A DNA stretch of 32,000 nucleotides from Candidatus Hermodarchaeota archaeon (GTDB lineage: Archaea; Asgardarchaeota; Heimdallarchaeia; Hodarchaeales; Hodarchaeaceae), in the NCBI GenBank assembly GCA_048886185.1, contig JBHLKY010000012.1:139313-171312 (forward strand), read 5' to 3'. The notes beneath the pieces were generated by a model. It searched no databases, was not told where the DNA came from, and saw only the letters and a list, made by a program, of their open reading frames with translations. A program made the position numbers and the translations under genes. Positions 2,054-21,052 of this stretch are shown here, piece after piece. Numbering within the stretch: the stretch's first letter is position 1; every line of letters begins with the position of its first letter.

Positions 2054-2632
2054 CTAGGAATCTTCTTCGAATCTGCTGATTATTTTTCTACCAAGCACAG
2101 AAAAAGCCCTTTCCACATTTTCTCCTGTTTTTGCAGAAGTTTCAAAATATTTGATCCCATTATCTATATTTGAGTATTTATTATCCAAGTTATCAATGAT
2201 ATATTGTTTGACTGTTTCTGCAGAGATTTTAACCTCGTTTTTTAAGTCCATCTTATTCCCTAGGACAACAATTGAAGAATTAGGTAATCCAATGTTTTTT
2301 GAGAACTCCATTACCCATCTTTCAATATTTCTGAAAGAATCAGGACGTGTAAGATCAAAAACAAGAAGGGCGCCTACAGAGCCATGATAATATACCTTTC
2401 GGACTTGTTCAAAGGCAGGTTGTCCTGCCAGATCCCATATTTGGAAACGAATATCTTTTTTCTGAAATCTGAATCCCAAAGAAACCTCCTTGGAATGAAA
2501 ATCAGTACCTAAAGTTGGAGTGTATGCAGAAGGGAAACCTTTTCCTAGATATCTGTTAATTAAGGAGGTTTTTCCGACACTTCCATCTCCTAGTAAGCAG
2601 ATTTTCATAAGTAGTGCCATTTTAGCATCCAT
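2054..2632 (-). CDS. Rab-like small GTPase (paralogue 1)
   Basis: G1 GDGSVGKT, G2 YTPTLG, G3 IWDLAGQ, Rab-like YYHGS and LVFDLT, G4 NKMD, G5 ETSAKT. No C-terminal Cys motif. Confidence 0.95.
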   Translation of the reverse strand: MDAKMALLMKICLLGDGSVGKTSLINRYLGKGFPSAYTPTLGTDFHSKEVSLGFRFQKKDIRFQIWDLAGQPAFEQVRKVYYHGSVGALLVFDLTRPDSFRNIERWVMEFSKNIGLPNSSIVVLGNKMDLKNEVKISAETVKQYIIDNLDNKYSNIDNGIKYFETSAKTGENVERAFSVLGRKIISRFEEDS

Positions 2633-3030
2633 TCAGTAGTAAATAGATCTTTCAAGAGTGATTTTATAATCATTAAAATTAATTAGTTAAAAACTAATTC
2701 ATTGAATCATCACACGGATGATAGTTGAGAATATCAAAGACACCTTTAGTATAATCTTTGCGAGTGTTAGCAATTCTTTCGCTTTTTTCATCTTTGTCTG
2801 AAATATCGGTATTCTCAAGGGTTTGAGGAAATCTCCTCAAAGAAAATTTGAGATGTCATATTTCCACTAGCTTACCTTTTCCTTTTAAGTCAAATCACTA
2901 CTAGGACAGTTCTTTGCATTACACTATATTTATTAAAACAGGGTATTGCTATTGTCACGAAAGAAAAGATATTTAGCTAGAATGTATTAAAGACCCAGAA
3001 TTTGTTATTAATGGGTATTTTTCCCTTTTA

Positions 3031-6000
3031 TTATATAACTGGTATTTCCTCTTGAGGATTCGTATTATTTGGTACAACCACGTTTACTTCAGGCCTGCTT
3101 CCTATCCATAGAGCTTTGTAAACTACTTTCATATCAATCTTAAGAACTTTTGTGAACATATCTAATGCTTCACTAAGAGTAATTGAAGGAGTATCTCGTA
3201 AGAGAGCTAAAGATTTATCAAAAAGGTTTATCTGAGCTTTAGGATCAGTAATACTGGCATCTAGGTTCGCTTTCACGATTGCTAAGCGTTTAAGCGCATT
3301 TAATGAAGCTCTAGAAATACTAGAAATTGAAATACCCCGTTTGAATCTCTCTTCTATGTATTTAATGCGTCGACAATCAATATAGAAGGGGGAAAGAAGA
3401 GTTACTGGGAAATGCTGCTTTACAACTTTCTCTGTCATAGATCCCACGAGGACTTCATTAACAACACCCAATTCATGTAGAGTTATTTTTTCTTCAATGT
3501 TTCTCATAATTGAAATGAATGAGGATTTTATATATTCTGGTGGTGTCTCTTTTAAAAATAAGAATATTTTAAATGAAGGGGAAGACACAATTAAGATCTG
3601 AACTTTATTCTTCTCGATAATACTTGTTCTAATACTTTCTTCAATTTGATTTTCTAACAGTTCAGAGTCATGTTCAATGAATAAGTTAACAATATCTGAT
3701 TGAAATGACTCTAAAAAGGAATCGATACCAACTGAAAGACCACCTAACACATCCTGTATCGCACTACGCGATTGATACATAATATTATTTGTATTATAAA
3801 TTGGAATGCCTACAGCAGTGGTAACTAAGATCATATAAGTGTTTAATAAGGATTCTAACCTTTTTTGATATTCACTGATCTCAGATATCTTCTGTTTCTT
3901 CCGCTCTTGATAGGTGATTGAAACTGTATAAACCACAATCACAATACACATCGTACATAAAATTGTCAGAATTACTGCTTCAAGTATAGAATCAAATATT
4001 GGAGGGGGAGGAAAGAAAAATGTAAATTCTCTTCTGATTGAGCCATTTGATTGATTAACTGAATCATATACTTCTATAAACCATTTAAAAGTTACTGTAT
4101 TGTGGAAAGAGAGCATTATTGTATAATGGGTTTGATTAAAAGTCATTGGAACTCTTTTCATCAGAGATTCGGATCCATAACCACCTGTTTCTTCAAGAGA
4201 AGTAATTTCATAATTCAAATATACTTCAGAGACTCCTGAACCCCAATCTGAGATATTTGCCCAGATATTTATTGTAGTTTTATTAATACTGTCAATTCCA
4301 GCCGAATGGATTATTGGTTCCCACCAATCAAACATCTGACCAGAGTTTGTGTACAGGCCTGCCTCATAATGACCCTTAAGAACTCCTTCATCGATAACAT
4401 GTATGATATAGGAGAATTTATGCAAATATTCTATCTGTATCTGATAAGTGTAATGAGATCCATTTAAAATCATTTCAGTTTCATTTAAAATCCATTCGTC
4501 ATACGTATCATCTTTCACTGATAATGTAATACTGTGTGTATTGAATAGATCATATAGCTTACACCATAACAGGAGTTCTCCAATATATGATGTTGATGCG
4601 GTTGTTCCATGGTTAACAACCTTTGCTGGTTGAAAGTTTGATGTTCTTTGATTTATCTCTCCTATGGTTATATTATTTAATGCAGTATCATATATCTTAA
4701 TGTAATAATTGAATGTCTGGTTAGAATCCACAATAATTGATTCGACATAATGTGATCCGTTATAACGCATTTCTTTTTTTTCTATCCATGAACCAAATCT
4801 ATTCAAGAAATTTATGGTAAGGTTGACACTATCAATAACACCAAATGGATCAGTAGCATTAGCCCAAAAGGTTAACAGGCATTCATATTGATTCCAAGTT
4901 GTGTTTAAAAAGCCAAATTCATAACAAATTGGATCTGTTTTATCATAAATAGTGATTTTTTGGGGGGAAGTGGATATATTGTTTCCACTATTATCAAAAG
5001 CAGTAATAAAATACCAGAAAGCACGATCAGGAACAAATCCATGTATATAGTAAATGTAAATGTTACCAGTTCCATTCCAATGCATTACTAGTCCGCTATA
5101 ATCAGAAACGTATGTGTAATCCAAGAGAACAGATGAATTATCATCAAATAATCCACTACCATAAGGACTCTCTTCAACTTCAGCCCAGATGACAACTGTT
5201 CCATTCTGGTACACAATTGATTCAGTTCTCGTAATATGTGGAGGAGCATTATCAGAAATTGTTATACTTTTAGAAATGACCCCCAAATTCCCCGCATTGT
5301 CTTCTACCCAAACTTTGATTAACACTTGATCTCCGAAAGGAAAGGTATAGGATGTTTTATATCGATAAAAGACATCATAATCCATTTCCAATAATATATG
5401 ATTCTCTAAATGAGTGAAATTAACATAAAAAGTATTATTCACATAGTAATTATCCCCGTAAGGATCAATCGCATATACAAAGACGGTTATTTCACCATCA
5501 TTCTCAGTAGAGTTTTCAATTGAATATATAATTATCGGGGAAACAGTATCAGATAATGTAAAGTTTGAAGCTTGATCATTTCCTAGATTATACCAATTAC
5601 CTGTAGTATCAACTGCTGATACATAATACCAAAGACTCTGTAAATTATATTCCAATGAATCAATGCGAGTAAAAAAAATAATATCTGATAATCGATTCAT
5701 TGAAAGATTAGTCCATGTTCCAAAATAATTCTGTGAATATAACAAATAAGCAGTAGTATCATTTAATGGCCAGTCAAGTATTTCAGCATAGAAGTCTACT
5801 GTGCCATTTCCCCAATCTATTTTCCAACATGATACAATAGGTATTGAATTATCATCTATAATGAACGGCCCCTGAATTATTGATGTATTCGAGTTATTGG
5901 CAAAATCTGATGCAGTAATCCAATAGTAAACAACATCATTGCATTGAAGCGCCAAATTATAATAAAAGTGCTCTTCTGATTCAATCATATAGTATGAAAG

Positions 6001-9000
6001 GATATCACCATTTATATCTAGATGTAATTGTACATTACTCTTATTAACACCGCTTTGATAATCATTGTGATCCTCTATAGATACATAAATCTCTACATGA
6101 CCATGGAAATGAGAATCAAAATTATCTAATATATCCTCCTCATCAATAGGTGGTGCTTCATCATCATCAGGGATAACCGTGCAAAAAGGAGGAGATAATA
6201 AGGAAACTTTTGATCCATTTTCATTTCCTAAACTATCTATTGCAGAATAAACCGTGTAGTTTAAAAGCACACCATATTTTGCTTCAAAATAACATACCCA
6301 AAACCCAGTAATGTTTTGATGCATTTCTAGAAAACGATTATTTACCTGCAATATTACAGGATCCATTAATAAACTCATATTATCTGTAATATTTGCATAA
6401 AACTGAAGTGTTCCATTCTGATAATCAGTAACACCATATTCAACAATAATGGGAGGAAAACCATCACCTAAATAAAGAGATTTAATATGAGTTACAATAG
6501 TATTATTTGCGACATCAATAGCAAGAATATTGTAAAAAATCTGAACATCTATATGGGTTAACGAATCCAATGCTGTTGCATTGTAAAATTGGTTATAAGA
6601 AAATTCTTCCATCGTAAAATTTTCATGAATAAGAAGAACTTCATCCGTTATATTGATTACAGTTAAATTGATATAAACTTCAAAGCTGCTCTTATCACTA
6701 ACATTAGCAAAAAAGGTAGGAGAGTTTTCGAAAAGAATGGAAGTATTAATAAAATAGAATTTATGCACTAGAGGAGGATCATTATCAGTAAATTCAGAGA
6801 CAATTACTGTGAACTCATACTTAGGATTAATCTGATAGGTTGAATAAGCAGCAAATTTAAGAAATGCAAGAGTTTTGTTAATTGAGTCTTCAAATTCTAC
6901 TGTTATATTATAATAATTATAAGGTAGATTTGAAAAGATAGCATACCCTAAATTTGTTGTATTTTGTGTCCAAGTAATTGTTGCATTGTTAAAATTTGTA
7001 ATGTTCACCCTAGCATTAGGAACAATCTTATTATCTAAATCTAAAACATTAATACGCACAGTTGCGTTCTCAGGGCCTCTCTCTAGATCTGCAATTATAT
7101 TTCCGTAAACATCATTATTTTCCTCATCAAAATAAATTACGTAGAGTCTTTCTGATGAAATGAAATCAGTCCGTAATACATTCCAAGCACTTTGAGTAGT
7201 GCTAACTCGACGCCCTGATCCCCAAGATTCTCCCCCGTCAGTTGAATTCTTTACAAAAACTGTATTATTGATGATATAAACAGCATAGAGATCATTATTT
7301 GAAATATCATAAATAGGTTTTGCTTCATCTCCATTTATTCCACAATTTGTAACTATATCAGTTTTTTGACTCCAAGAGCGGTTGTGATCAAAGAATACCC
7401 ATGTTTCTAAATCCCCTGTTGCGCTTAGAATATCATTATTAAGAATAGCATAAATATTATGAGTGTTTGGATCTATTGTTGCTCCCCAATTAGCATTGTT
7501 ATTATAAGAATCTTCTGGAAGTATTGTCTCAGAAATGATAGTTGTTACAAAGGTGGGAGAAGTATCCCATGTATCCAAATCCTCATTATAAGTAAATGAA
7601 TAAAGAGAATTTTCAGAAGCATCTTCATAAAGGCAAAGAATATCTCCACCACTTAGAGGAAGGAGTTGGCCATGGTCATCATCATCCATTAAGAAGGAAT
7701 ATGGAGGAGTAATATCATACCAACTAGAATCAAACTTGGCAAATTGGGGTCCATAGGTCATCCAAGAAGCACCAAAAATTAATCCATCAGTTGAAACTGT
7801 TACTGTACCACCTCCATCAGGTGCATTGTGGGATCCACCAGAAGGCATAATTACGGTCCATTCCCCACTAGAAGAGTCATCTTGAGTATCGAGGTAATTA
7901 TATACCATTTCATCGTCACTGATAGAGTTTGCAACAAAATGGATTTTTGTACCCGTATTATTGGGTGTCCACTGGTCAAACCAACAACTAAAACTTCGAA
8001 ACCGATATTCAGGAGGACCACAATCAATGTTAATTGGACCTTCCCAGATAGTCCCATTATCAGTTGTTTTATAATAGATTATCTCAGCCATACCACCGTT
8101 TGTCTTTTGGAAAAAGATATACCCATGAGAATTATTAATAAAAACGATATTTGGCCCTGGGTTGTATTCATCAGTGGCATCATAAACATCGGTATCAATA
8201 ATGACCTCCGATCCATCCAAAACAACACTGGAGTCTCTTTGTTCTTCAAAACTAACTGTATAGAAGTTTTCCGGATCGTGTTGGTTATTGTACTCAGTTA
8301 TGATCCAATCTGCAGAGATAATTCCCTTATAAAGACGTAACTCGTCAATTACTCCCGCAAATTTCTCATCACCACCATAAGTCTGATCAAGAACGAGACG
8401 CCCGATTTGATAATTACCAATAGTACCGAATGTAGGATTCCCCGTATTGCTCATACTACCCTCATCAAGACCATTTACGTACATTTTACCTATATTTTCG
8501 CTTTGGTTAGCAGTAGCAACTATGTAAATCCATGATTGTCCAGGCCAAGAGGTAGTAGTGCTATCTACATAATCAAAATTACTACCACCAATACCTTCTA
8601 CCTTTGAATAGAGCGCTCCATTATTTCCATGAAAATTATCTTGACCTGCAAAAGTAAACGCCATATTATAGGCATCGTGGTTATAATGGCCAAAAATTGG
8701 CATGGATTCAGCTGAATTTGAATTGAAAGGGGCATTTAATTGCACCCAAGTTGAGATACTATAATTTCCAGTCCCAATTCTAGGATCCCATACACCTAGA
8801 CTAATATAATCATCTATACCATCAAAACCTCGTGCTCTCCCTATTTTACCGACTTCATCAAAAGACCCTTGACTTGTTCCATCAACACTATTTGATGAAG
8901 AACCCATTAGGTCTGTATCTAAATGCCAAACTCCCACATAATTGTCACCCCATACACCAATAGCATTTTCTTGATTTTCAATGGTAGAATTCCCGTAATA

Positions 9001-9609
9001 CATCGATATTGTGGTATTTACATCACTTGATAGAAATGGTAATCGAATCCATGCCACAAGCAATGCATGAGATCCATTGTATGTTACATCAAAATGTTCT
9101 ATCTCATGATCAAGTGTTTTATTTAATGAATCTTTGAAAATAATGTCATCACCATCAACTTGGGTGTGATAACGAAGATCATTATCATAAAGTACTATCA
9201 GTACAGGAAAATCACTCAGATTGGCCTGAACATTACCTCCATCTATTGTAATATTTTTGCGATACTGAAAAGAAGGGGCTCCCCAATTTATGTTTTGAAT
9301 GTCAGCCTTAATAGGGAATGTTAATTGTCTTTCATTTTGATATGAGTTAGAAGGGAAAGATAAGCATGGGTTTAAATTCTCTGGATAATTTATTCCGTTT
9401 TTTTTATTGAATGAGCTTATGTTGAAAGCATTGCCTTTTAGCTGGGGTACTCTTAAGTACTCGTTTTCAACTTTAACCATCTGATTATGAAGAGGGTTTA
9501 CCTGAATAAAAAATTGGGAAAAAAGCGTTAATATAATCATAAATAAAAGGAATTTCAACCTTTCTACTCTTTTTCTGGATTTCATTTCACTATACTCGTA
9601 TTTAATCAC
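3031..9609 (-). CDS. Giant single-pass surface glycoprotein: DUF2341-like, LamG-like, Asp-box propeller, about 9 Ig-like repeats, TM helix, cytoplasmic longin-like domain
   Basis: N-terminal hydrophobic segment. 'YRKNITID...LSDFPVL...WIRLP...ISMYYGN' is DUF2341-like. 'VGVWHLD...FDGIDDYI...FAGVIDELRLY...WIITEYNNQ' is LamG-like. Asp-box-like TTDNGTIW and STDGGESW. Repeated D-x(1-3)-P-P/x-I units, many N-x-S/T sequons, TM helix at about 3910-3987. Confidence 0.8.
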   Translation of the reverse strand: MIKYEYSEMKSRKRVERLKFLLFMIILTLFSQFFIQVNPLHNQMVKVENEYLRVPQLKGNAFNISSFNKKNGINYPENLNPCLSFPSNSYQNERQLTFPIKADIQNINWGAPSFQYRKNITIDGGNVQANLSDFPVLIVLYDNDLRYHTQVDGDDIIFKDSLNKTLDHEIEHFDVTYNGSHALLVAWIRLPFLSSDVNTTISMYYGNSTIENQENAIGVWGDNYVGVWHLDTDLMGSSSNSVDGTSQGSFDEVGKIGRARGFDGIDDYISLGVWDPRIGTGNYSISTWVQLNAPFNSNSAESMPIFGHYNHDAYNMAFTFAGQDNFHGNNGALYSKVEGIGGSNFDYVDSTTTSWPGQSWIYIVATANQSENIGKMYVNGLDEGSMSNTGNPTFGTIGNYQIGRLVLDQTYGGDEKFAGVIDELRLYKGIISADWIITEYNNQHDPENFYTVSFEEQRDSSVVLDGSEVIIDTDVYDATDEYNPGPNIVFINNSHGYIFFQKTNGGMAEIIYYKTTDNGTIWEGPINIDCGPPEYRFRSFSCWFDQWTPNNTGTKIHFVANSISDDEMVYNYLDTQDDSSSGEWTVIMPSGGSHNAPDGGGTVTVSTDGLIFGASWMTYGPQFAKFDSSWYDITPPYSFLMDDDDHGQLLPLSGGDILCLYEDASENSLYSFTYNEDLDTWDTSPTFVTTIISETILPEDSYNNNANWGATIDPNTHNIYAILNNDILSATGDLETWVFFDHNRSWSQKTDIVTNCGINGDEAKPIYDISNNDLYAVYIINNTVFVKNSTDGGESWGSGRRVSTTQSAWNVLRTDFISSERLYVIYFDEENNDVYGNIIADLERGPENATVRINVLDLDNKIVPNARVNITNFNNATITWTQNTTNLGYAIFSNLPYNYYNITVEFEDSINKTLAFLKFAAYSTYQINPKYEFTVIVSEFTDNDPPLVHKFYFINTSILFENSPTFFANVSDKSSFEVYINLTVINITDEVLLIHENFTMEEFSYNQFYNATALDSLTHIDVQIFYNILAIDVANNTIVTHIKSLYLGDGFPPIIVEYGVTDYQNGTLQFYANITDNMSLLMDPVILQVNNRFLEMHQNITGFWVCYFEAKYGVLLNYTVYSAIDSLGNENGSKVSLLSPPFCTVIPDDDEAPPIDEEDILDNFDSHFHGHVEIYVSIEDHNDYQSGVNKSNVQLHLDINGDILSYYMIESEEHFYYNLALQCNDVVYYWITASDFANNSNTSIIQGPFIIDDNSIPIVSCWKIDWGNGTVDFYAEILDWPLNDTTAYLLYSQNYFGTWTNLSMNRLSDIIFFTRIDSLEYNLQSLWYYVSAVDTTGNWYNLGNDQASNFTLSDTVSPIIIYSIENSTENDGEITVFVYAIDPYGDNYYVNNTFYVNFTHLENHILLEMDYDVFYRYKTSYTFPFGDQVLIKVWVEDNAGNLGVISKSITISDNAPPHITRTESIVYQNGTVVIWAEVEESPYGSGLFDDNSSVLLDYTYVSDYSGLVMHWNGTGNIYIYYIHGFVPDRAFWYFITAFDNSGNNISTSPQKITIYDKTDPICYEFGFLNTTWNQYECLLTFWANATDPFGVIDSVNLTINFLNRFGSWIEKKEMRYNGSHYVESIIVDSNQTFNYYIKIYDTALNNITIGEINQRTSNFQPAKVVNHGTTASTSYIGELLLWCKLYDLFNTHSITLSVKDDTYDEWILNETEMILNGSHYTYQIQIEYLHKFSYIIHVIDEGVLKGHYEAGLYTNSGQMFDWWEPIIHSAGIDSINKTTINIWANISDWGSGVSEVYLNYEITSLEETGGYGSESLMKRVPMTFNQTHYTIMLSFHNTVTFKWFIEVYDSVNQSNGSIRREFTFFFPPPPIFDSILEAVILTILCTMCIVIVVYTVSITYQERKKQKISEISEYQKRLESLLNTYMILVTTAVGIPIYNTNNIMYQSRSAIQDVLGGLSVGIDSFLESFQSDIVNLFIEHDSELLENQIEESIRTSIIEKNKVQILIVSSPSFKIFLFLKETPPEYIKSSFISIMRNIEEKITLHELGVVNEVLVGSMTEKVVKQHFPVTLLSPFYIDCRRIKYIEERFKRGISISSISRASLNALKRLAIVKANLDASITDPKAQINLFDKSLALLRDTPSITLSEALDMFTKVLKIDMKVVYKALWIGSRPEVNVVVPNNTNPQEEIPVI

Positions 9610-9887
9610 TTATGTATCTAAATATAAGACCAGAGTCCCCTGTAATGCCTTTTTGTCTTATAAATGAATTCTAAAGGGAGAAAATTCGATGGGAGCAGCG
9701 CTCATGGACGAAATTTGATTACATAATATGTTAAGCAGCATGTATATTCAAGAATCCAGATTATTAAAATTAACTAATCAAAATATTTGATCAGGCGATA
9801 TTCTAAGATCTTACTGTAAAGTCAATTACTTCTATTCCTGTCAAAAAAATAGCTTAGGTATATGATAATAGAGAAGTATTCCTCTTT

Positions 9888-10466
9888 CTATAGGTATAAT
9901 TTGTCAATTATCCTTTCTGCAAGAGCTAAAAAGCCTGATCCACATTTCTTCCAGTTTTGGCTGAGGTTGTATAACAATCAATTTATGCTTCTATATTTGA
10001 AAATTTATTGACTAAATATAAGTCAATATAATCCCTCACTTTATTGAAAGTTATCTTGATTTCATCTTTTAAATCTATTTTATTCCCTAGAACAATTATT
10101 AAGGAACTAGGTAATTCAATATTTTTTGAAAACTCTTTAAGCCACCTTTCCATGTTTTCTAGAGATTTAGTCCTTGTAAGATCAAAAACTATGAATGCAC
10201 CAGCCGATCCTTTATAATATACCCTTCTAATTTGGCTGAATGCTTGTTGGCCAACTAAATCTTATATTTTAAAACGAATATCTTTAAAGCTATATTTAGT
10301 TTTAAAAAAAATTTGTTTTGATAGAAAATCGGAACCTAGCGTGGGAGTATATTCCGATGAAAAGCCTTTTCCAAGATATCCATTTATTAAAGATGTTTTA
10401 CCTACCTCTCCATCTCCAAGAAAGCATATCTTAGTAATTCAAGGCAATTTTTACTCTGGTAGACTT
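9888..10466 (-). pseudogene. Rab-like small GTPase pseudogene (paralogue 2), absent from the ORF track
   Basis: Manual translation: ITKICFLGDGEVGKTSLINGYLGKGFSSEYTPTLGSDFLSKQ...KDIRFKI*DLVGQQAFSQIRRVYYKGSAGAFIVFDLTRTKSLENMERWLKEFSKNIELPSSLIIVLGNKIDLK...NIEA*IDCYTTSAKTGRNVDQAF, then a frameshift (LALAERIIDKLYL*). It has two in-frame TAA stops, a 1-nt frameshift near each end, and no intact start codon. Confidence 0.92.
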
Positions 10467-10626
10467 ATATGATGATGATACTTAAAAACCTAAGGCAATT
10501 CATAAATCTATTTCTCCCAATTTATAACATTGGAAGACTATTTTATTTTATTAGTGTGTGTAACAACACTTCATTGTTCGTTGATCAACTCAAATTATCT
10601 TTTATTTAATCTTCTTTTAACAATAT

Positions 10627-11199
10627 TTGGTGGTTAAAATTTATATTCCTTATCCTGATCCAACTATTGGAATTATTGATTTTTTGGTTCTAATTTTCTG
10701 TGAGGTAGGACTTCTTTGGTTCTTTTCACCCACACGCACCATTAGACAGACTTTCCCAATGATTCTAGCAATTAATCTTATTAAATTTGGTTGCTATAGT
10801 TTGCTAGCTCCGATATTTACTCCTGCTTACAATTATTTCTATTTTATTCCATTAAATGAAATAGCTACATTTATAGTTATTGGAACAATCTTTTCCACAA
10901 TAGTATATGAACGAGAACAGATTGATTTCCCGCGAAATCAGGCATCCTCTCTTGCTTTCCGAGTTTCGAGTCTCTCAACCTTAATTTGGTGTACTTTTCG
11001 AAATCTAAATAAGCCAAATTATAGTGTGTTAGAGGGAACAACAATAAAAGGGCTTGTACCTGAACCAATGATACCTTTATTCCAATCAGTTTCATCATCG
11101 AATGAAATCTTGATGGTGGTAGGACTTATTATTGGATTATTAATGATCTATATTCATTATAATAAGAAATACATAAGGGATCACACCCTTACATCTTGA
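10627..11199 (+). CDS. Hypothetical multi-pass membrane protein
   Basis: 190-aa ORF with about 5 hydrophobic segments. No recognisable family motif. TTG/GTG start is uncertain. Confidence 0.65.
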   Translation: MVVKIYIPYPDPTIGIIDFLVLIFCEVGLLWFFSPTRTIRQTFPMILAINLIKFGCYSLLAPIFTPAYNYFYFIPLNEIATFIVIGTIFSTIVYEREQIDFPRNQASSLAFRVSSLSTLIWCTFRNLNKPNYSVLEGTTIKGLVPEPMIPLFQSVSSSNEILMVVGLIIGLLMIYIHYNKKYIRDHTLTS

Positions 11200-11254
11200 T
11201 ACTTATTGTTTCCCTGCTATCTGAACTACTCTTACCCTTTATCGATATTTTCTT

Positions 11255-11809
11255 CTAACAATAATGTTTAGTAATGATCTTATACCCTAATATTGAAAAA
11301 GCTTGGTCTACATTCTCTCCTGATTTCGCAGAGGTTTCAAAATAATCAATGGTATCATGTATATTTGAAAACTTTTTGGATAGCCGATTTTCAATATAAT
11401 TCTTTGCGGTGTCAATAGGAACCTTAATTTCTTTTGTTAAATCCCTTTTATTCCCTAGAACAATTATAGCAGAGTTTTGTTCAGTATTTTTTGAATACTC
11501 CTGTAACCACCATTCCAAGTTTTCTAAAGAATCTGGACTAGTTAAGTCAAATACCAAAAAAGCTCCAATTGACCCTTTATAATACAGTTTTCGGATTTGA
11601 TCGAAAGTTGGTTGCCCTGCTAGATCCCATATTTGAAAACGAAGATTTTTGGGGCCATCTGAAGTTTCTAAAGATACTTGTTTAAAAAGAAAATTAGCAC
11701 CAATTGTAGGAATGTATTCTAAAGTAAAATCCTCTCCTACATATCGACTCATTAGAGATGTTTTTCCTACTTTTCCATCTCCAAGCAAGCAAATTTTCGT
11801 AAAAATCAA
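11255..11809 (-). CDS. Rab-like small GTPase (paralogue 3)
   Basis: GDGKVGKT, YIPTIG, IWDLAGQ, YYKGS, LVFDLT, NKRD, ETSAK. The TTG start is preceded by an in-frame TAA, and an out-of-frame ATG lies at 11829. Confidence 0.93.
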   Translation of the reverse strand: MIFTKICLLGDGKVGKTSLMSRYVGEDFTLEYIPTIGANFLFKQVSLETSDGPKNLRFQIWDLAGQPTFDQIRKLYYKGSIGAFLVFDLTSPDSLENLEWWLQEYSKNTEQNSAIIVLGNKRDLTKEIKVPIDTAKNYIENRLSKKFSNIHDTIDYFETSAKSGENVDQAFSILGYKIITKHYC

Positions 11810-19115: not shown

Positions 19116-20834
19116 ATGAACACAGCGAACTCTGACGATCATTCTCTTGATAAAGATTTTATTCGGAAAATTGTTTCAGATGATGTTAAAAACAACAAAA
19201 ATAATAGTCGTGTACATACTCGTTTCCCCCCAGAACCAAATGGATGGTTACACATAGGCCACGCGAAATCAATTCATCTTAACTTCAGTATCGCAGCTGA
19301 GTTCAATGGATTATGTAATCTACGATTTGACGATACAGATCCCGCCAAAGAAAGCATGGAATATGTAGAGGCTATTAAAAAAGATATTCAATGGCTTGGT
19401 TTTGATTGGGAAGACAGACTTTATTTTGCATCGGATTATTTTGAACAGTTATACCAATTGGCAATGGGATTAATTAAAGCTGGAAAAGCATATGTATGTG
19501 ATTTAAGTGTAAAAGAGATCAAGCATCAAAGAGGAACATCAGAAGAACCAGGAATGGAAAGTCCCTATCGAAATCGATCAGTAGAAGAAAACATCAAGTT
19601 ATTTGAGAGGATGCGCAATGGAGAGTTTGAGGATGGATCTCGGGTGCTACGGGCGAAAATTGACATGACCTCTCCCAATATGCTTATGCGAGATCCAATA
19701 ATGTACCGAATAAAGAGGGTACCACATTATAGAACTGGAAATGAGTGGGTGATTTATCCAAGCTATGATTATACTCATGGTCAATCTGATGCAATCGAGG
19801 GAATTACTCATTCCCTCTGTTCGTTAGAATTTGAGACGCATAGACCCCTTTATAATTGGTACAGAGACCAACTTCTGAAATTAAACTTGTTAAAATACTG
19901 TCCTGAACAAATTGAATTTTCTAGATTAAATTTAACTTACACTGTTATGAGTAAGCGACGGCTTCTAGAGCTGGTTGAACAAGGACATGTTTCTGGATGG
20001 GACGATCCCCGAATGCCAACTCTTGCAGGATTACGTAGACGTGGTTATCCAGCGGAAGGAATAAGAAATTTCTTGGATAAAGTGGGAATTTCAAAGAGAG
20101 AAAATTATATTGATGTAGGTCTCTTAGAAGCATGTGTACGCGAAGTAATGGACAGAGAATGTAAACGAGTTATGGGAGTTCTCCATCCTCTGAAAGTTAT
20201 AATTCAGAACTATCCCGAAAATAAGGTCGAAGAATTAGATTCGCCCAATCATCCCAAGGATCCCAGTATGGGATCACGGAAAATACCATTCTCCCGAGTA
20301 ATATACATTGAACACGAAGATTTTCTTGAAAAACCTTCAAAGAAATTTTATCGATTAACCCCAGAAAGAGAGATACGACTTCGATACGCGTATTATATCA
20401 AGTGTGTAAATGTAATTAAAGATGAGAATTCTGGAGAAATCCTGGAATTACACGCGACCTACGATCCGGAAACAAAGGGAGGGTATGCTCCAGACGGTCG
20501 AAAAGTCAAAGCGACTCTCCATTGGGTTTCAGCTGAACATGCAATAGCAGCAGAAGCACGCTTATACGACCGACTTTTCAACAAGGAAAATCCAATGGAA
20601 AATGTAAAATTCACCCAAAATCTTAATCCAAAGTCACTAGAGAAGTTAACGTGTTTTGTAGAGCCAAGTCTAGCAAATGCAGCACCAGGAAACAAATATC
20701 AGTTTGAACGTTTAGGTTATTTCTGCGTAGATTTAGTCGATGCAACACCAGAAAAATTAGTTTTTAATCGAACAATTACCTTACGTGATCCCTGGTCTAA
20801 AATCAAGAAGACTCAGAAATCTATAAAGATGTAA
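19116..20834 (+). CDS. glnS: Glutamine--tRNA ligase (bacterial-type GlnRS)
   Basis: '[19 protein letters not shown]', '[10 protein letters not shown]', '[27 protein letters not shown]', 'VMSKR', '[10 protein letters not shown]', 'KATLHWVS', 'QFERLGYF', 'FNRTITLRD'. No eukaryotic N-terminal extension and no C-terminal YqeY domain. Confidence 0.95.
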
Positions 20835-20862: not shown

Positions 20863-20934
20863 CAGCCCCGCCCGGAATCGAACCGGGGTCATCGGATTCA
20901 GAGTCCGAGGTGATAACCGCTACACTACGGGGCT
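20863..20934 (-). tRNA. tRNA-Gln(CUG)
   Basis: AGCCCCG-TA-GTGT-AGCGGTTA-TCAC-C-TCGGA-CTCTGAA-TCCGA-TGAC-CCCGG-TTCGATT-CCGGG-CGGGGCT-G. Full cloverleaf, no intron, no encoded CCA. Confidence 0.97.
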
Positions 20935-20967
20935 TCAAGTAAGGTTTATTTGTATTTCACTTAGTTT

Positions 20968-20975
20968 AAAAAAAA
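20968..20975 (-). terminator. Oligo-T terminator after tRNA-Gln(UUG)
   Basis: T8 run on the minus strand 4 nt after the discriminator base. Confidence 0.55.
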
Positions 20976-20979
20976 TGAT

Positions 20980-21052
20980 CAGCCCCGTCCGGATTTGAAC
21001 CGGAGTCGAGAGGGTCAAAGCCTCTTATGCTAGTCCACTACACCACGGGGCT
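20980..21052 (-). tRNA. tRNA-Gln(UUG)
   Basis: AGCCCCG-TG-GTGT-AGTGGACTA-GCAT-A-AGAGG-CTTTGAC-CCTCT-CGAC-TCCGG-TTCAAAT-CCGGA-CGGGGCT-G. No intron, no encoded CCA. Confidence 0.97.

Follow-up and report, generated by a model that had tools for sequence, protein, structure and literature searches.

Why a gene for a giant single-pass surface protein should stand among genes for Rab-like GTPases on the same strand is the question raised by a 32,000-nucleotide stretch of DNA (the window) on contig 12 (JBHLKY010000012.1) of a Candidatus Hermodarchaeota archaeon assembly (4.84 Mb, 75 contigs, 96% complete). Asgard archaea have dozens of GTPases of the Rab-, Arf- and Rag-like kinds as well as many longin and roadblock proteins, and in bacteria and archaea alike small-GTPase genes are known to be paired with genes for roadblock or longin proteins. 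In MK-D1, GTPase genes do not as a rule share operons with genes for roadblock or longin proteins, so that cognate pairs are hard to match (PMC10933270). How regulators are matched with GTPases, and how GTPases without lipid anchors gain access to membranes, are the questions addressed by the protein family described here. The original prediction was of a receptor-to-Rab signaling locus in which the surface protein carries a cytoplasmic longin-like domain, and this interpretation as a whole is partly supported. The reading that we favor, to which we give a probability of roughly 55%, is that the cytoplasmic tail, as modeled, provides a longin platform, tethered to the membrane, for a Rab-like GTPase that is dedicated to it and not prenylated.

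The giant gene (P0001; 3031-9609, minus strand) is a single intact open reading frame (ORF) of 2192 amino acids (aa) with no internal stop, and its translation probably starts at the ATG at 9585. A closed genome from this genus has an orthologue of 2187 aa, and a relative of 2180 aa has a tail that is 68% identical. By hydropathy the protein has only two hydrophobic segments, residues 17-38, which are a signal peptide or N-terminal anchor, and residues 1870-1901 (3907-4002, minus strand), a single transmembrane helix with a hydropathy of 2.87 over 19-mers that is modeled as one long helix and is directly followed by a Lys/Arg-rich stop-transfer stretch. The ectodomain has 61 N-x-S/T sequons where 27 are expected from composition, and the tail has one where 2.4 are expected. 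Because of these hydrophobic segments, the distribution of the sequons and the Lys/Arg-rich stretch, the ectodomain is assigned to the outside of the cell and the tail to the cytoplasm, and the sequence supports an N-out, C-in topology in which the bulk of the protein would be extracellular and the last ∼290 residues cytoplasmic.

Two intact Rab-like GTPase genes flank the giant gene on the same strand, one downstream after a gap of 398 bp (P0002, 192 aa; 2054-2632, minus strand; Pfam Ras 7.5e-44) and one upstream (P0003, 184 aa; 11255-11809, minus strand; Pfam Ras 6.7e-42). Directly adjoining the giant gene upstream is a GTPase pseudogene (∼9902-10453, minus strand) with in-frame stops, one of which replaces the Trp of the WDxxGQ motif. 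The intact giant gene, the two same-strand GTPase genes and the pseudogene are all as originally predicted. In P0002 the G1-G5 motifs and the glutamine of DxxGQ are preserved, and the C-terminus lacks a Cys motif; its best sequence matches in the PDB are Rab7 (9.4e-33) and a Thorarchaeota Rab, and the top PDB relatives of P0002 and P0003 together are Rab7, the Thorarchaeota Rab, Rab8, Rab14 and Rab1. In the orthologous locus of the closed genome, the distal GTPase is 66% identical to P0003 and an intact GTPase at the position of the pseudogene is 75% identical to it, while P0002 is an extra copy by comparison. To judge from this comparison, GTPase copies arise, move and decay while intact copies stay beside the giant gene.

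The fold of the tail was modeled with AlphaFold2 (AF2) using an alignment of 44 sequences, which gave a predicted local distance difference test score (pLDDT) of 86.9 and a predicted template modeling score (pTM) of 0.82. Without the alignment, AF2 on the single sequence of residues 1850-2192 reached a pLDDT of only 38, and this model was discarded in favor of the alignment-based one. In it, helix 2-38 (tail numbering, as for all positions in the model below) continues from the transmembrane helix with pLDDT >90 and includes a juxtamembrane stalk at residues 1902-1922 (3844-3906, minus strand). Residues 1923-2068 (3406-3843, minus strand) are predicted with high confidence to be a longin-fold domain, its strands b1 (40-47), b2 (52-57), b3 (110-116), b4 (119-125) and b5 (129-135) and helices a1 (65-93), a2 (141-157) and a3 (168-182) following the longin order b-b-a-b-b-b-a-a. 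The eight secondary structure elements that the original prediction had named all coincide with elements of this model; the region that it had given as residues at about 3410-3850 was the right one but in the wrong unit, these numbers being nucleotides of the window and not residues of the protein.

Structural comparison agrees with the topology. The top match in an exhaustive VIA-align search was synbindin (Z 10.6, root mean square deviation 3.2 Å, 119 residues aligned), followed by the longins sedlin (9.0), Sec22 (9.0), VAMP7 (8.9) and that of a Lokiarchaeota Roadblock-Longin protein (8.8), and all of these matches span model residues 39-184, thus including helices a2 and a3. Foldseek against the PDB returned the longins COPI zeta, sedlin, AP sigma subunits, Sec22b, Ykt6, Tca17 and Mon1-Ccz1 and the roadblock proteins LC7, LAMTOR, MglC and Asgard roadblocks, with no other fold class in the list and with modest E-values of 1.5e-3 and above. 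On these grounds we accept a longin fold, as a prediction, for residues 1923-2068. Its structural look-alikes in the Atlas are 100% from Archaea, mostly Promethearchaeota. The core strands and helix a1 are the most strongly conserved regions of the tail; a1 ranks after strand b5 and contains the conserved polar residues D79, Q86 and D88. Helix a1 is said to line the GTPase-binding face of longin dimers. Beyond the longin domain the model has a second domain of ∼110 aa, absent from the earlier description, which comprises six helices (residues 2069-2180; 3070-3405, minus strand; tail 185-296, pLDDT ∼87-96) with conserved NALKRL and YEALW motifs and a near-invariant Trp. No family match to it was obtained in Pfam or PDB-sequence searches, and a winged-helix assignment (HTH_47) hinted at by the Atlas (template modeling score 0.42) was rejected, with no sequence support in the Pfam scan of the 44 tails.

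Is the association of this tail with a GTPase gene more than an accident of one locus? The genome has 42-45 small-GTPase genes, or about one per 110 kb, and just one of its 94 ORFs of ≥1000 aa, that of P0001, has such a gene within 1 kb; the arrangement exceeds chance. The tail family is itself small: only 54 relatives turned up when 1.84 billion representative proteins were scanned exhaustively with HMMER, and in the long relatives (1100-2550 aa) the homologous region is always C-terminal. Among 400 genomes of the phylum that were searched with a profile, 24 have the tail. These include 17 of the genus's 21 other genomes; outside the genus, a full-length match comes only from one genome of the same order, and a strong partial one, at a contig end, from a genome of another family. 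Related records from a single-protein search were Candidatus Heimdallarchaeota bin272 (CP070760.1) and Promethearchaeota DZ3S.51. The flanks of 26 tail-bearing genes of the genus were read, and a Rab-like GTPase gene lies directly alongside in 17 of them, usually just downstream on the same strand, with gaps that are often ∼20-30 bp and with two GTPase copies at some loci; in three more, tandem clusters of giant genes share a GTPase.

The pairing extends to distant metagenomic relatives with 25-31% tail identity, four of five having a GTPase nearby: one 300 bp upstream, one 156 bp downstream, one 1.2 kb away in divergent orientation and, on a soil contig, three in tandem downstream. In the last case the three Ras-family genes (2672-4989 of the soil metagenome contig) directly follow a tail-family gene of only 368 aa, and upstream of it a gene of 401 aa that is truncated where the contig ends may encode a detached ectodomain. 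Other neighbors are unrelated and differ between loci, being metabolic, permease or regulator genes (FtsX-like permease, saccharopine dehydrogenase, HTH_10 regulator, subunits of 2-hydroxyglutaryl-CoA dehydratase) or genes with no Pfam match. The conserved synteny that had been proposed as a check of the locus is therefore found, across paralogous subfamilies as well as distant relatives, and the partners prove to be a dedicated clade.

This clade was defined by a maximum-likelihood tree of 43 small GTPases of the genome (two from the window), 19 adjacent GTPases of other genomes and one GTPase that is not adjacent. All 21 adjacent GTPases fall into a single clade (Shimodaira-Hasegawa-like approximate likelihood ratio test support, SH-aLRT, 99) that has no non-adjacent member and excludes the ∼41 other GTPases of the genome; P0002 and P0003 belong to it, and the pseudogene is a decayed GTPase gene of the same clade. 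Six GTPases beside distant tails group together elsewhere in the same Rab-like assemblage, and forcing all 27 into one clade gives a tree that the approximately unbiased test does not reject (p 0.51) and whose likelihood is 0.62 log units better than that of the free search. Neither the G1-G5 motifs nor the catalytic Gln varies within the partner clade, which has the characteristics of a Rab-family G domain. No geranylgeranylation Cys motif is conserved at the C-termini of the 21 partner GTPases, P0003 alone among those listed ending in a single Cys, and this agrees with reports of Asgard Rabs that lack a prenylated C-terminus (PMC10933270). The spacing between G4 and G5 in the clade is 33-39 residues; long spacing was considered as a clade marker and was rejected, since several unrelated GTPases of the genome share it.

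The histories of the two partners run in parallel. Four tail subfamilies match four subclades of the partner GTPases, and the pairwise distances among tails and among their GTPases are correlated with a Mantel r of 0.80 (20 pairs; the value is reached in 0 of 5000 permutations). This shows that the pair was co-duplicated and co-retained, although co-duplication alone does not prove contact.

These observations would also fit a GTPase that serves the giant protein in some other way, by acting in its export, membrane insertion, glycosylation, positioning or turnover, with the longin tail being a dimerization, cytoskeleton- or sorting-adaptor module that has a different partner. Conserved adjacency and co-diversification are compatible with any functional dependence and not just with regulation of the GTPase by the tail; longins also act without GTPases, as in SNAREs and adaptor sigma subunits, both of which are among the structural matches of the tail; and homologous tails occur on other giant proteins that have no adjacent GTPase gene. 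On the other hand, the tail is the sole feature common to all of the GTPase-linked giants, whose ectodomains vary both in composition and in length (719 to 2536 aa), and GTPase neighbors are missing from other giants that have homologous repeats in the ectodomain. This suggests that the tail is the linked element, and we regard the service role as unlikely, though it is the best of the alternatives.

The tail might instead be a GTPase-activating protein (GAP) or polarity module of the MglB type that turns off the neighboring GTPase at the sites of the surface protein. VIA-align gives significant structural matches to roadblock proteins (Z 6.7-8.1, MglB 8.1), the partner GTPases retain their intrinsic catalytic Gln, and position 130 of the tail is a near-invariant basic residue (Arg in most members, Lys in P0001). 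However, the longin matches outscore those of roadblock proteins and cover helices a2 and a3, while the roadblock matches span only residues 34-162 and leave a3 unaligned. The roadblock topology, a-b-b-a-b-b-b(-a), has an N-terminal helix packed on the sheet, and the N-terminal helix of the tail consists of the transmembrane segment and stalk. The conserved basic residue lies inside strand b5 and not on a loop, so that a role as an arginine finger is not evident. We find an MglB-type module less plausible still.

Several observations weigh against the favored reading of the tail as a longin platform. The fold assignment rests on a predicted model, because by sequence the tail belongs to no longin or roadblock family: across the 44 tails there is no convincing Pfam match (searched to E ≤1), including to Longin, Sybindin, Sedlin_N, Clat_adaptor_s, Fuz_longin and Robl_LC7, the tail has no NCBIfam match, and its profile finds no PDB sequence at E up to 10. 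Helix a1 and the loop that follows it are modeled with a pLDDT of only 52-70. The pairing itself has exceptions, since six of the 26 genes have no GTPase in the available flank and the fifth distant relative has none within 5 kb. One of the six is a giant-gene paralogue in the same genome (P0004, 1611 aa; contig 17, 7455-12290, plus strand), the tail of which is 38% identical and the partner GTPase of which has been lost; here a gap of ∼26 bp separates the giant gene from a 2-hydroxyglutaryl-CoA dehydratase gene, where orthologous loci hold a GTPase. A divergent but homologous class of tails (hhalign probability 95.6%, E 1.2e-8) has a GTPase within 4 kb at three of nine loci, with no consistent pairing. 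In addition, most of the paired loci come from one genus and are not independent samples, the 398-bp gap before P0002 means that co-transcription is not evident in the window, and co-varying distances alone are no proof of interaction because linked genes share their history. An adjacency without function, in which a GTPase gene beside an ancestral giant gene was copied along in segmental duplications and persisted by linkage in one young lineage, would account for the single genus, for the congruent trees and high Mantel r that linked genes give by duplicating together, and for the GTPase losses (the contig 17 paralogue and one distant relative), but it is improbable given that the pairing persists to 25-31% tail identity on sediment and soil metagenome contigs, that the GTPase switches side and orientation and is replaced after pseudogenization and yet stays adjacent, and that all other neighbors differ between loci.

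How might a longin platform of this kind operate? The product of the giant gene would be a heavily glycosylated, single-pass adhesin or receptor on the cell surface, and its cytoplasmic longin and helical domains would provide a docking or regulatory platform for the soluble, non-prenylated Rab-like GTPases that are encoded alongside. The tail would hold these GTPases at the membrane beneath the surface protein and control or read their nucleotide state, in the manner of the longin or roadblock platforms of TRAPP, Mon1-Ccz1, SRX-SRbeta, Ragulator and MglB. Tail and GTPase probably bind each other physically. The activity that follows from binding could be that of a guanine nucleotide exchange factor (GEF), a GAP or a GTP-dependent anchor. 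The odds that information would flow from outside to inside or from inside to outside are, in our judgment, roughly even, and MglA, which controls gliding adhesion complexes, is a precedent for the latter. The stronger proposal, that a transmembrane receptor or adhesin directly recruits and switches a dedicated Rab-like GTPase by means of a built-in longin tail, is tentative, and we would not bet on it. Dimers of longin and roadblock proteins are a common platform for the binding and regulation of small GTPases, examples being TRAPP-Rab1, Mon1-Ccz1-Rab7, MglB-MglA, Ragulator-Rag and SRX-SRbeta (PMC10933270). A co-fold of tail residues 17-300 with the GTPase (with alignments, at 1:1, without nucleotide and without control runs) gave a score of 0.24 against a mark of 0.32 and weighs neither way.

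The ectodomain of the giant protein (3994-9495, minus strand) contains DUF2341 (residues 152-217; nt 8959-9156, minus strand; Pfam 1.2e-7) and a LamG/ConA-like Laminin_G_3 domain (residues 263-436; nt 8302-8823, minus strand; Pfam 1e-13), has two Asp-box motifs (residues 515 and 789; nt 8044-8067 and 7222-7245, minus strand), and continues with a CarboxypepD_reg-like match and then Ig-like repeats, the Pfam matches in this further part being weak and that to CarboxypepD_reg under its cut-off. Its repeat region is homologous to eight other giant ORFs of the genome. At least three more conserved families of cytoplasmic tails occur behind a C-terminal transmembrane helix on giant ORFs of this genome, one with eight members that have tails of ∼190-215 aa, one with four members (∼290-320 aa) and one that is a pair; example loci are on contig 10 (1-7428), contig 1 (262770-275381), contig 9 (89076-95468), contig 19 (23587-27216) and contig 12 (67463-71308). 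One representative of each was searched and gave no above-threshold Pfam match, only sub-threshold TPR_12 and FtsX. Three further giant ORFs have a transmembrane helix with a divergent, longin-like tail that is detected by the profile of the 44-tail alignment (A1) at E 1e-9 to 1e-13 (contig 22, 58708-64899; contig 24, 37503-43613; contig 67, 173-4564), and the one on contig 22 (hhalign 95.6%) has no GTPase within 10 kb.

Elsewhere in the window, a 190-codon ORF with several hydrophobic stretches (10627-11199, plus strand) lies between the pseudogene and P0003. It has no Pfam match, and the orthologous locus of the closed genome shows no counterpart of it between its two GTPase genes; it may be spurious or an insertion. 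Two tandem tRNA-Gln genes (anticodons CUG and UUG; 20863-21052, minus strand) come right after a 572-codon ORF (19116-20834, plus strand). The window is AT-rich (GC 0.30-0.38), and its DNA is present in four sediment-metagenome DNA runs of one study, which may be its source; no RNA run is listed as containing it.

What the family offers is a genomically matched pair, a predicted longin-fold domain that is tethered to a transmembrane helix and a co-duplicated clade of Rab-like GTPases. The tail, with ∼290 aa, and the GTPases, with ∼190 aa, are separable and of modest size, which makes assays of binding, exchange and hydrolysis feasible, as well as a structure of the complex. Our literature searches found no description of a giant single-pass surface protein that has a longin in its cytoplasmic tail and is paired with a dedicated Rab-like clade, and if the coupling is real this would be the first cell-surface protein found in those searches to be wired directly to a longin-GTPase switch. 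If the direct-switch reading is correct, it would represent an Asgard way of placing non-prenylated Rabs on a membrane, and possibly a forerunner of the eukaryotic membrane-bound longin GEF that defines where a Rab acts.

Among known systems, the conserved pairing of a Ras-superfamily GTPase with a protein of the roadblock/longin superfold recalls MglA-MglB and other prokaryotic GTPase-roadblock pairs. In the conservon of Streptomyces the module comprises a membrane sensor, CvnA, which is a sensor-kinase-like ATPase, together with the roadblock protein CvnB, CvnC (DUF742) and the GTPase CvnD. In contrast to MglA-MglB and the conservon, the fold in this case is of the longin type and is covalently part of a membrane protein, and the GTPase is Rab-like rather than MglA-like. 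Moreover, no gene for a histidine-kinase-like ATPase or DUF742 protein is found among the neighbors, so that the locus is not a four-gene unit of the conservon type. Within Asgard archaea, a close parallel is an operon of a LAMTOR1-like roadblock protein, a Rab-like GTPase and a DENN protein (Liu et al., bioRxiv 10.1101/2020.10.19.343400). That neighborhood also joins a roadblock-superfamily protein to a Rab-like GTPase, but here there is no DENN or LAMTOR1-like gene, the longin is the tail of a giant surface protein and the distribution is narrow.

In the SRX-SRbeta pair of the signal recognition particle (SRP) receptor and in Ragulator-Rag, a longin or roadblock domain comes together with a small GTPase on a membrane to which one partner provides the anchor, and SRX domains match the tail structurally (Z 7.3-7.8). 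The topology is inverted, however, the GTPase being the transmembrane-anchored partner in the SRP receptor, and the present locus has no lipidated LAMTOR1-like scaffold and a GTPase that is neither Arf/Sar-like nor Rag-like. TRAPP (synbindin, sedlin and Bet5-Trs23) and Mon1-Ccz1 differ in being soluble multisubunit complexes, whereas the longin described here is part of one polypeptide with a transmembrane helix and a giant ectodomain and has no membership of these families at the level of sequence; unlike in TRAPP, there is no TRAPPC3/Bet3 partner nearby and the partner GTPase is non-prenylated. It is nevertheless these systems that the tail resembles in structure, synbindin and sedlin being its top matches and the Mon1-Ccz1 longins having a Z of 7-7.8, and the best PDB sequence match of the partner GTPase is Rab7, the substrate of Mon1-Ccz1.

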